Assembly (NCBI RefSeq): GCF_006345805.1
Contig: NW_021827946.1
Location: 1-9,443, forward strand
DNA: 9,443 nucleotides
From: Octopus sinensis
Lineage: Eukaryota
Direction: 5' to 3'
Below are positions 1,100 to 8,909 of the stretch, piece by piece. The stretch's first letter is position 1, and every line of letters begins with the position of its first letter. The notes beneath the pieces are model-generated. The model made no database searches. It saw only the letters and a program-made list of their open reading frames with translations, and was not told the origin of the DNA. The position numbers and the translations under genes were made by a program.

Positions 1100-1312
1100 T
1101 TTTTGTTTCAGCTCAGAGCTCCGGCCATGCTGATGCACCGCCGTTTAACGGATTAAGTCGACTACATCGACCCCAGTGCGTCACTGGTACTTAATTTATC
1201 GACCCCGAAAGGATTAAAAGGTAAAGTCGACCTCGGCGGAATTTGAACTCAGAACGCAGCAGCGGACGTAATGCCACAAAGCATTTCGCCCGGCGTGTTA
1301 ACGTCTCTGCCA
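1100..1312 (-). mobile_element. tRNA-derived SINE with Nin/Deu-like central domain, near full length, tail type A
   Basis: Minus strand: A-box-like TGGCAGAGACGTT (1312-1300), B-box GAGTTCAAATTCC (1250-1238) and central ATCCTTTCGGGGTCGATAAATTAAGTACCAG. Head and core align with the copy at 4981-5208. The tail aligns with 8760-8800. Confidence 0.9.
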
Positions 1313-3785: not shown

Positions 3786-4094
3786 TTACTATCTCTGCAT
3801 CTCTGTATACTACGAAGTTTTCTTTTAAAAACATATAATAAATACTTGCTATATTCTGCAATGCCTCTTTTCATTTTAAGCCAGGACTAATTATTATGTT
3901 TTTCCGCGTTTTTCTAGTTCTTTCTGTGAAACACTGAAATGCCGAAAGCCATTGTCGGCCTCCACGATGTCAGCGGCTGGATTGAATGATGAAGCGGTGG
4001 AAAGATATAGCGACGGAGTAACAAACTGATTGAAGCACAAATTGATCGAAACGTAATTCAACGAAAACGTAGCAAAAATATTCGTCTCGAAATA

Positions 4095-4682
4095 CAGGGC
4101 AAAGAGGACGGACGTTATTGAAATGGCTATTACTCAGCCCCAGTGGAAGTGACATATGACCGACAGGTACCATTCGTCTTAGCATTTTTCTTCTTTTCAG
4201 GTAAAGACGATAGAGTATCGCGTGTTTGCCTACGACAGTTATGTGAAGAACAACGAGTCTATCGCAGCAGTTCAGCGTGAGTTTCAGCGCCACTTCAATA
4301 TTCACCGAAATTCACGACGTACACTAATGATTAAGGGACTAGTGAGGCATTCCAATCAACTTGGCATTGATAATCGATCGGTAAGGCGTATTTTGCATGA
4401 AGACCTGCATTCCCACCCGTACAAATTGGTCATTGGGATACAGTTGAAACCATGTGACTATGCACAGAGCAATGCTTGAAAGAGTGGAGGCCAGCTTCAA
4501 ACAACGCCTTCAGAAATGCATCAATGAAAACGGACGCCACATGACGGATGTTGTTTTCCACACGTGATTTTGATAAATTCTAATTCAATACGAACACATT
4601 GATGTCAATTAAGTTTGCTTGCAGCTAAAATTAATGATTTTGTGAATTTTTCAAAAACGTCCATTCTCTGTGCCCCAGCCTG
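4095..4682 (+). mobile_element. Internally deleted, non-autonomous Tc1/mariner-superfamily DNA transposon (588 bp)
   Basis: Left TIR CAGG-----GCAAAGAGGACGGACGTTATTGAA (4095-4122) versus the reverse complement of the right TIR CAGGCTGGGGCACAGAGAATGGACGTTTTTGAA (4650-4682), differing by 4 mismatches and a 5-nt gap. TA flanks both ends (4093-4094, 4683-4684), and transposase remnants lie inside. Confidence 0.9.
4201..4567 (+). pseudogene. Transposase remnant: N-terminal DUF4817-like HTH region plus extreme C-terminus, catalytic DDD/E domain missing
   Basis: The frame from 4201 reads TIEYRVFAYDSYVKNNESIAAVQREFQRHFNIHRN...LGIDNRSVRRILHEDLHSHPYKL...QLKPCDYAQ. A second frame at 4472-4567 reads MLERVEASFKQRLQKCINENGRHMTDVVFHT*, resembling the RLxxCIxxNGxH C-terminal motif of these transposases. 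There is no ATG at the N-terminus. Confidence 0.85.
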
Positions 4683-4805: not shown

Positions 4806-4869
4806 GGGATCGATGTAATCGACTGGTCTCCTCCCCCAAAATTTCAGGCCTTGTGCCTATAGTAGAAAG

Positions 4870-4871
<2 letters not shown>
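4806..4871 (+). mobile_element. 5'-truncated SINE 3' fragment, tail type B
   Basis: GGGATCGATGTAATCGACTGG...AAAATTTCAGGCCTTGTGCCTATAGTAGAAAGAAT aligns with 5129-5195. Confidence 0.85.
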
Positions 4872-4902
<31 letters not shown>

Positions 4903-4980: not shown

Positions 4981-5208
4981 GTGTTGAGCTAGCAGAATCG
5001 TTAGCTCCCTGGACAAAATGCTTAGTTGTATTTCGACCGTCGCTACGTTCTGAGTTGAAATTCCGCCGAGTTCGGCTTTACCTTTCATCCTTTCGGGTTC
5101 GATAAAAAGAATTACCAGTTGAACACTGGGGGTCGATGTAATCGACTGACTCCCATCCACAAAATTTCAAGCCTTGTACCTTTAGTAGAAAGGATTATCA
5201 TTATTATT
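4981..5208 (+). mobile_element. tRNA-derived SINE with Nin/Deu-like central domain, full length, tail type B
   Basis: A-box-like TAGCAGAATCG (4990-5000), degenerate B-box GAGTTGAAATTCC (5052-5064), core CCTTTCATCCTTTCGGGTTCGATAAA and an ATT-repeat tail. Homologous to the reverse complement of 1155-1312. Confidence 0.9.
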
Positions 5209-7356: not shown

Positions 7357-8316
7357 TGAATTTATACATAGGTTTATATCCACGTACGTACGGAGAGAGA
7401 TACAGAAGAACAAGTGAAACTTTTTGTGCATATACTTATGTGTATACACACATAGACACAAACACGCACACGTATATATATATATATGTATATATTTACA
7501 AGGAAAGATACAAAGATTTTTGTGAAGCTAAGGATTCATCCGTCGTTCGATCGCGTTTCGCTGCTTCCGTTTTTCTGAGCAAATGTGAAAACGGAAACCG
7601 GAAACTCAGTGTAGCGACAGAGGGAAGGAAGCCTCAGCTTCGGCTCTATGAATAATGCCTACTACGCATATTTTGAACTCACTTTGGTCTCTTGTTTGTA
7701 AATTACAATACACTACACATATACGTATATATGTATATATATTTATATATACGTAGTATATATGCATGCATGTATGTATGCATATATATGTACATATGTA
7801 TGTATACACAGACACACATATATATATGCAAAAACTTCCGTTTACAAGTCTATTTTTAGGGCAGCTGATATATATGGAAATAAGGAATAAACCCTCCAAT
7901 ATTTCCCTAATCAATATGACGTCTATCTTCCACTTTTTAAAATACCGTTTATGCTTCTTAGCTCCTTCATTGTTTTTCATTTATTGGATCTATTGTCATG
8001 AATTTTATTACTTGCTCATCGTGTTCTATTATAGTAGATCTTAAATTTTTCAGTCTAAACTTACAGACCCAAAAATGCATATTAAAATTATATACGGCCT
8101 CGTCTTTGAAAACCCAAATATTTTGTAAGATGGTGACAGTATTTGAATGTTTACGCTACATGTTCGCTCAATATACTACGTTGACTTGTATGCCGAAAAA
8201 TACATTATATGATTTTCATGAATTATATATGAATGCAATTGCAGCGTGGAAGGTGTTTGTAAGCCATTTAAGAAACACACAAAAGCCGTTCAATTCACTT
8301 CAACATTTAAGTTTAA

Positions 8317-8366
8317 TTTGTCAAAATATTTTCGTCGCTAAAATCCGCGACCTGTTCACTGACAAA
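8317..8366 (-). ncRNA. Minimal type I hammerhead-like motif, G3:C8 variant (copy 1)
   Basis: The minus strand reads TTTGTCA-GTGAACA-G-GTCGC-ggatttta-GCGAC-GAA-AATATT-T-TGACAAA. This gives a 7-bp stem I, a 5-bp stem II and a palindromic stem III. Confidence 0.6.
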
Positions 8367-8388
8367 AATCCGTGCTGCATCTGAGAAA

Positions 8389-8433
8389 GTCAGTGAACAG
8401 GTCGCGGTCTTAAAGCGACGAAAATATTTTGAC
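8389..8433 (+). ncRNA. Minimal type I hammerhead-like motif, G3:C8 variant (copy 2)
   Basis: GTCA(8389-8392)-GTGAACA(8393-8399)-G-GTCGC(8401-8405)-loop-GCGAC(8415-8419)-GAAA(8420-8423), with palindrome AATATT (8423-8428), T8429 and TGAC (8430-8433). Confidence 0.6.
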
Positions 8434-8740
8434 AAATTAAACTTAAATGTTGAAGTGAATCGAACGGCTTTTGTGTGTTTCTTAAATGGCTTACAAACAC
8501 CTTCCACGCTGCAATTGTTTTCGTTTCAGCACACGATCTCAGATCAAATCACTTGCTATGCGAGTACATCCCCTATATATGAATGATTATCTTTAAACGA
8601 ACCAGACTGGTTGAATGTCTTGTTAATTCTGTATGATTATGGGGAAATATTTAGGAACGTAGATCTAAGTATAACTACAACGGCTTATCCCCGTATTCAA
8701 CGATCTGTATTTCTACAATTATTCGTTGTAGACATGTAGT

Positions 8741-8909
8741 TACTCTTTTACTCTTTTACTTGTTTCAGTCATTTGACTGCGGCCAAGCTGGAGCACTGCC
8801 TTTAGTCGAGCAAATCGACCCCAGGATTTATTCTTTGTAAGCCTAGTACATATTCTATCGGTCTCTTTTGCCGAACCTCTACGTTACGGGGACGTAATTA
8901 CACCAGCAT
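8741..8909 (-). mobile_element. SINE 3' half (different body), tail type A
   Basis: The minus strand ends ...CCTGGGGTCGATTTGCTCGACTAAAGGCAGTGCTCCAGCTTGGCCGCAGTCAAATGACTGAAACAAGT(AAAAGAGT)2. The tail aligns with 1103-1142. Confidence 0.85.

Follow-up and report, generated by a model that had tools for sequence, protein, structure and literature searches.

A probable abortive Penelope-like insertion in Octopus sinensis whose arms carry a G3:C8 hammerhead motif

Penelope-like architectures and the Octopus insert

The closest described relatives of the insertion considered here are Penelope-like elements (PLEs). In the accessible parts of the literature, published PLEs are described with inverted pLTRs, a tail on one arm, target-site duplications (TSDs) of 8-10 bp, and pLTRs that take in the first 12-22 codons of the open reading frame (ORF) (PMC3846280). 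In Adineta Pen2a, the pLTR contains 12 codons, or 22 with the tail (PMC3846280). The head-to-head pLTR architecture is thus already known, to the point of being textbook for PLEs. PAc (Poseidon of Anolis carolinensis) is the one PLE reconstituted in vitro: it cuts and extends both strands and is predicted to form a dimer, two internal initiation sites define its tail, and insertion proceeds without need for ribozyme cleavage (Frangieh et al., 2024, PMC11167929). Hammerhead pairs on opposite strands, 100-700 bp apart, have been noted before in Schistosoma (PMC4209133).

The stretch of DNA analysed here (the window, 9,443 nucleotides of O. sinensis) is microsatellite-rich animal DNA. An earlier note had described in it a 338-bp insert between the copies of a perfect 12-bp duplication, and this was borne out. 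The 12-mer (83% AT) has its two copies on the plus strand at 8224-8235 and 8574-8585; it cannot be lengthened and is found nowhere else in the window. A 12-mer is repeated at the same offset at 0.12% of random window positions, and the other repeated 12-mers within 7830-8900 are two overlapping tandem ones only. The insert consists of two arms. The direct arm (8389-8573, plus strand, 185 nt) is a pLTR copy 5'-truncated at the first base of stem I of a hammerhead motif, and it ends at the main 3' end of the family. The inverted arm (8236-8390, minus strand, 155 nt) contains sequence upstream of the motif, the motif itself, the 5' UTR and the first ~11 codons of the PLE ORF, and is without the tail. 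Where they can be compared, 8236-8363 (minus) and 8389-8517 (plus), the arms differ by one mismatch and a small change in one loop. The tail, a 56-nt 3' extension with a small hairpin (8518-8573, plus strand), is present in the direct arm only.

The 25 nt between the arms had been taken for a spacer, which they are not: 8364-8390, read on the minus strand, belongs to the element itself and lies upstream of the ribozyme, as seen from family contigs and from loose ends before 8389 and behind 8390. The left arm therefore extends from 8236 to 8390 and overlaps the right arm by 2 nt (8389-8390), a microhomology at the head-to-head junction. The description of the left arm as a truncated inverted copy accordingly holds on the 3' side of the element, where it is 56 nt shorter than the right arm, but not on the 5' side, where it is 27 nt longer. 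The upstream sequence has a pyrimidine run and a CAG (8383-8381) that looks like a 3' splice acceptor. By eye, in the window as well as in the contig consensus, CTAAC, the pyrimidine run and CAG directly upstream of stem I resemble the end of an intron; in D. virilis Penelope, an intron is described as ending at helix I (PMC4209133).

As in the EN+ PLEs Pen2a, Pen2 and Pen3a of Adineta vaga (Arkhipova et al., 2013, PMC3846280; Craig et al., 2021, PMC8557442), a pLTR is inverted head to head with the inverted arm the shorter, one arm alone has a tail-like extension, the pLTR reaches over the first ORF codons, the TSD is of similar size, and partial tandems occur in the family. However, the tail is 56 nt here and 30-40 nt there, the TSD 12 bp here and 8-10 bp there (PMC3846280), and both arms are so truncated here that no ORF body is left. 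The insert is two head-to-head pLTR copies (5' UTR plus first codons) of an Octopus PLE, a real, doubly truncated PLE insertion of known design. The supplement text of Craig et al. (PMC8557442), in its accessible form, includes entries for Octopus Naiad and for Hydra. No match was found in it to nine short motifs taken from either strand of the window, or to two more of mixed origin; line breaks in that text can hide matches.

The locus was compared with contigs of four of the 24 listed sequencing runs (X2, X5, X7 and X8), aligned to 7900-8735. In X2, one contig spans the left junction with 0 differences. In X5, the single left-flank contig, with 14 differences and 1 gap, ends its alignment exactly with the left TSD (at 8235), and a further 30 letters of it do not align to 8236 onward; no displayed joint connects it to 8586, and there is no added cover at 8600-8615. 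The contig fits a haplotype without the insert, and an empty site is suggested. X7 and X8 have no contig for most of the left flank. Zero depth over the right flank (8656-8735) in all four runs proves nothing; by eye, 8656-8740 is an imperfect inverted repeat, and it is uncovered in every run. The insertion is probably fairly recent, as the earlier note had it: the perfect TSD, the near-identical arms and a single diverged haplotype that breaks off where the insert begins make this plausible.

The hammerhead motif and its G3:C8 core

The element had also been called ribozyme-bearing, and both arms do carry a minimal type I hammerhead motif. In the direct arm the motif spans 8389-8433 (plus strand). 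Stem I (8389-8392/8430-8433) is followed by the core GUGAACA (8393-8399), an extra G (8400), a 5-bp stem II (8401-8405/8415-8419) closed by G10.1-C11.1, GAAA (8420-8423), a palindromic AUAU, U16.1 at 8428 and U17 at 8429; the predicted cut site is after 8429. In the inverted arm (8317-8366, minus strand) the motif has the same G3:C8 core and a 7-bp stem I, and loose ends are found at 8345. Loop 2 of this arm (8340-8345) is unlike that of the family and repeats letters that stand 25 nt upstream, as a local slip of the template would produce. In neither arm is the literal CUGANGA core found; both have GUGAACA, in which the 3:8 pair is kept as G:C, and both have stems I and II, G10.1-C11.1, GAAA, the palindromic helix III and NUH. 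The whole insert folds as a single long hairpin (-219.8 kcal/mol) in which the ribozyme helices are hidden.

The descriptor used was the published minimal consensus (supplement of PMC4209133, in the part available), relaxed to any of three pairs at 3:8 and composed after the motif had been spotted. It has two matches in the window, both inside the insert, and none in 20,000 dinucleotide shuffles of the right arm. Rfam detected no hammerhead in the insert, and at 8257-8496 gave only miRNA-type models that fit the long hairpin, all below the gathering score. In the contigs of the four runs, no variant reaches 5% at 8393-8399, 8420-8423 or 8428, which makes G3:C8 the state of the family rather than a private mutation. 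The invariant core is no proof of selection, because divergence within this young family is low. Loop 2 varies across the family contigs, a common change in stem I (8432 A>G) leaves a U-G pair in place, and 8419 C>T (3-7% across the four runs) keeps a wobble.

The minimal type I hammerheads of metazoan PLEs, as given in the accessible parts of Cervera and de la Pena (2014, PMC4209133), likewise have a U-rich upstream flank, a short stem I, an extra base before G10.1-C11.1, GAAA, a palindromic helix III and, in the Crassostrea row, a UUU cleavage triplet. Unlike GUGAACA here, their core is CUGANGA or a natural U3-A8 variant; the extra base is G here, whereas the published consensus has H, and the palindrome here is 4 nt (PMC4209133). 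Judged by its sequence, the core is unusual but structurally sensible. In PAc the ribozyme is likewise near the ORF start, but the pair is C3:G8 and the ATG is at stem II, whereas here 57 nt separate the predicted cut from the ATG downstream (PMC11167929). In PAc, G3:C8 has been made in the laboratory as a double mutant and is partly active (PMC11167929), and the natural covariant reported in the accessible literature is U3:A8 (PMC3088659, PMC4209133). In the accessible literature on G3-C8 with hammerhead or Penelope, whose coverage stops short of Lunse et al. (2017), where G3:C8 may already be reported, only laboratory uses were found (PMC3884650, PMC11167929). A very high-copy family with a G3:C8 core is a ready natural test of a laboratory swap that is partly active (PMC11167929), and the core shows that standard descriptors undercount ribozymes. 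No work on this family was found in the accessible literature on Penelope, hammerhead and octopus; the O. vulgaris repeat library on Zenodo probably contains it under some name. The study by Lunse and colleagues is said to be the main survey of PLE hammerhead variants.

The reading frame and its probable link to reverse transcriptase

The proposed Penelope-like origin is supported by a link of the ORF to reverse transcriptase (RT) motifs, by the pLTR-type arms and by recurrent head-to-head junctions. The first 29 codons of the PLE ORF are at 8486-8573 (plus strand, ATG at 8486). Against 1.84 billion proteins this frame had one match, an O. bimaculoides protein (E 4.3e-5) that begins with this peptide. 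Two of 342 candidates were longer relatives of that protein, one from O. sinensis (P0004) and one from O. vulgaris (P0005). The window peptide is identical to P0004 at 26 of 28 residues, and the next residues of P0004, L-R-N, are those encoded by the loose-end consensus behind 8570. P0004 overlaps, at 120/151, another O. vulgaris protein (P0006), a cluster mate of P0005. P0006 has PKF at 190, DKSG at 334, PPLYGLRKDHK at 402, RPV at 424 and SMDVVSLYPSI at 482; both RT patterns together were found in 0 of 100,000 shuffles. By eye, its motifs DK, RT1, RT2 and RT-A are arranged as in the D. virilis Penelope row, in order and roughly in spacing (Craig et al., Fig. S7, PMC8557442, as far as accessible). 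A link between the window frame and a PLE-type RT is indicated at the sequence level, via a chain of overlapping proteins and not by one DNA record.

Searches with P0005 and P0006 in Pfam, NCBIfam, PHROGs and PDB gave no RT match. Neither a GIY-YIG domain nor RT motif C is present in the proteins found, all of which are truncated gene models ending before the endonuclease. Two structure predictions were poor (mean pLDDT 34.5 and 32.2). In the protein atlas, P0005 has eukaryotic look-alikes at 0.96-0.97, with DUF8422 on 16-41% of members, which is functionally uninformative, and no mention of DUF8422 was found in the literature searched. No viral loci related to P0005 were found, and P0006 gave chance phage matches only. 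In the O. sinensis gene model P0004, the N-terminal 223 residues of the PLE are fused to a methyltransferase domain; the fusion is probably an annotation chimera.

In the 8486 frame, one arm ends at codon 11 and the other at codon 30, and the arms are best read as pLTRs made of the 5' UTR and the ORF start. Five of the seven listed variants in this frame alter a residue, so the variants give no sign of selection on it. Two other frames were rejected. A 61-codon frame at 8389 (P0001) has no longer homologue and meets a stop at 8494 in ~60% of the family depth, the stop-making change being synonymous in the 8486 frame. For a minus-strand ORF of 64 codons no homologue was found.

Family junctions and routes to the insertion

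The four runs yielded 14,118, 10,208, 6,052 and 9,638 contigs, nearly all on 8236-8571. Summed depth there is 1e5 to 3e6, and 52.5 (X2) and 15.7 (X5) in the left flank. The raw depth ratio of insert to flank, 3e4 to 1e5, is not a copy number, and abundance is therefore stated only as of the order of 1e4 or more. In X2, 10,433 of the 14,118 contigs are 90-99% alike to the window. Other listed runs, guessed to be RNA, share 0.24-0.32 of the words, which is no evidence of expression. An exact-pattern scan with a 19-mer gave one viral and 29 metagenome matches, none reaching more than 23 nt into the element, and longer exact patterns gave none in the genome and viral contig collections.

On the 3' side the family ends at a defined place: 145, 151, 92 and 126 contigs have loose ends behind 8570, with long unlike flanks, whereas the short 3' end is represented by only 10-11 loose-end contigs, in two of the four runs. 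The 5' side falls into two groups, one with loose ends and long unlike flanks behind 8382 (60, 38 and 52 contigs, in three of the four runs) and one that extends upstream past 8390 with conserved sequence (59, 45, 32 and 42 contigs). Head-to-head joints from left arm to right arm account for 13 of the 15 displayed joints (143 further joints are undisplayed); each is at a different breakpoint, with 0-3 shared letters or with inserted letters. There are also partial tandems, with back-joints 8561-8523, 8570-8536 and 8369-8247. The two arms of the window copy share minority alleles (8442/8311, 8462/8291 and 8468/8285), which places them in one subfamily. The flanks of other family copies are AT-rich, as is the 12-bp target here.

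We assign a probability of about 0.88 to the reading that the insert is an abortive insertion of an Octopus PLE made of two short cDNAs, its arms carrying a pLTR hammerhead with G3:C8. The element's transcript would read from its ORF into the next tandem copy, and reverse transcription would begin within the first codons of the next ORF, ~32 or 88 nt after the ATG. The two arm ends lie at different points of the ORF start; that they mark sites of initiation is suggested by analogy with PAc, which likewise has two 3' ends shortly into the ORF, AT-rich targets and both strands usable as primers, as far as the accessible parts of its description go (PMC11167929). Target-primed insertion, as proposed earlier, is supported. 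The endonuclease would nick both strands of the AT-rich target 12 nt apart, the distance being taken from the TSD, and each nick would prime one cDNA. Synthesis from the long start site would have stopped after 185 nt, and synthesis from the short one would have covered 155 nt. The staggered nicks would thus give two target-primed cDNAs, joined head to head by microhomology, here the 2-nt overlap, and gap fill-in would duplicate the 12-mer. Each arm has sequence absent from the other (8364-8388 in the left only, 8518-8573 in the right only), which fits two priming events better than a simple fold-back. In the parent RNA, the hammerhead may cut weakly, as a dimer or with protein help, at about even odds. 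The 128-bp hairpin would mask the hammerhead in any RNA transcribed across this copy.

The earlier note had gone further and called the element non-autonomous and mobilised in trans. In the trivial sense that this copy encodes no enzyme this stands, but the copy need not belong to a separate non-autonomous family: with arms that reach into the start of an RT-type frame, it may be what the own RNA of an autonomous element yields after 5' truncation. The earlier version keeps the PLE origin and differs from our reading in the template only, which would be a short, separately transcribed, non-autonomous RNA of ~200 nt (a solo pLTR, retrozyme-like) copied by an RT acting in trans. We give it somewhat less than an even chance; this estimate, like the one for fold-back priming below, applies to variants within the PLE reading. 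The clustering of 5' ends just upstream of the ribozyme, in the group behind 8382, speaks for a short RNA. So does the fact that 10 of the 13 head-to-head joints, those of other copies, have one arm beginning at 8371-8382, just upstream of the ribozyme. The back-joint from 8369 to 8247 (depth 1,587 in X2) suggests ~125 bp head-to-tail units with the ribozyme, like a retrozyme subfamily, and retrozymes have been proposed, in the accessible part of the source, as derivatives of PLE pLTRs (bioRxiv 10.64898/2026.07.22.740005). However, the contigs of the second 5' group run upstream past 8390 with conserved sequence, and the left arm of this copy is of that longer type; a splice site could also produce the 5' cluster, and so could priming of the second strand where 5 nt of the 5' region match the reverse complement of the 3' end. 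Non-LTR retrozymes, as described in the accessible parts of Cervera and de la Pena (2020, PMC7229834) and of the preprint (bioRxiv 10.64898/2026.07.22.740005), are likewise short, ribozyme-bearing and PLE-related, with TSDs of more than 4 bp, but they are head-to-tail tandems with mostly canonical hammerheads, whereas this copy is an inverted pair over an ORF start. Head-to-tail hammerhead units are absent from this inverted copy, and a minority of family contigs suggest tandems.

In the same 10 joints, the other arm begins downstream of the predicted cut site (8432-8514), in two of them 3-4 nt after it, a placement to which cleaved templates or a bias in assembly might have led. In copies that stop near 8382, the first letters are the reverse complement of the 6 nt at the family's 3' end (8376-8383 versus 8565-8573). 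This start may be a minimal inverted stub from second-strand priming, which would make such copies MITE-like.

Under the same PLE origin, a single cDNA or antisense RNA might instead have folded back and primed itself to give the inverted arm, a route proposed for Adineta Penelopes; we consider this unlikely. Self-priming is, in the accessible part of the source, the published proposal for head-to-head PLE junctions (PMC3846280), and near-identical arms with minority alleles in common are in keeping with it, but with 8364-8388 and 8518-8573 each confined to one arm, neither arm is a plain copy of the other, the junction is without a palindrome, and loop 2 is unlike between the arms. A high-copy SINE or unrelated repeat with a chance hammerhead-like motif, or an assembly artefact, would account for the lack of an Rfam match and for the right-flank contigs missing in all four runs. 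We regard this as very improbable, given the absence of the descriptor from all 20,000 shuffles, no tRNA gene found in the window (a decayed head could escape), no A-rich tail at 8573, the X2 contig that crosses the left junction with 0 differences, and an exact TSD that misassembly would hardly make. Least probable of all is a DNA transposon, MITE or other, whose terminal inverted repeats are very short and whose fold-back arose by a later rearrangement: many copies do start near 8382 with the 6-nt reverse complement, but that is the only terminal inversion in other copies, and here, in agreement with the earlier note's view that this is no classical MITE, the left end is internal, the right arm is 56 nt longer, the TSD is 12 bp, inversion breakpoints vary, and the hammerhead motif and the overlap with an RT-type frame are present.

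For the reading as a PLE insertion from two cDNAs, the family offers thousands of junctions for testing twin priming behind PLE head-to-head inversion, this copy being no plain fold-back. A wider view, which we consider possible but on balance doubtful, is that a Penelope pLTR with an active, naturally reversed G3:C8 hammerhead is among the most abundant repeats of octopus genomes, that its short insertions, in the tens of thousands, are a record of twin priming at two fixed start sites, the smallest being 6-nt inverted stubs with the look of MITE ends, and that, with CUGANGA searches blind to this core, other PLEs called ribozyme-less may hide such cores. Hairpins of 128 bp, if transcribed, would be double-stranded RNA. 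Octopus-type animals are known for heavy A-to-I editing.

The window contains other repeats. One interspersed repeat is present at 1150-1310 (plus strand) and 4992-5153 (minus strand), with a partial copy at 4806-4878; the copies are ~80% alike and lie beside ATC/ATT microsatellites, and we take the repeat to be SINE-like. A third repeat-like stretch, 8740-8900, does not align to the other two and is presumably common in octopus DNA. At ~3950-4680, broken frames resemble a decayed Tc1/mariner transposase, with a weak DUF4817 match (E 0.088, below the cut-off).
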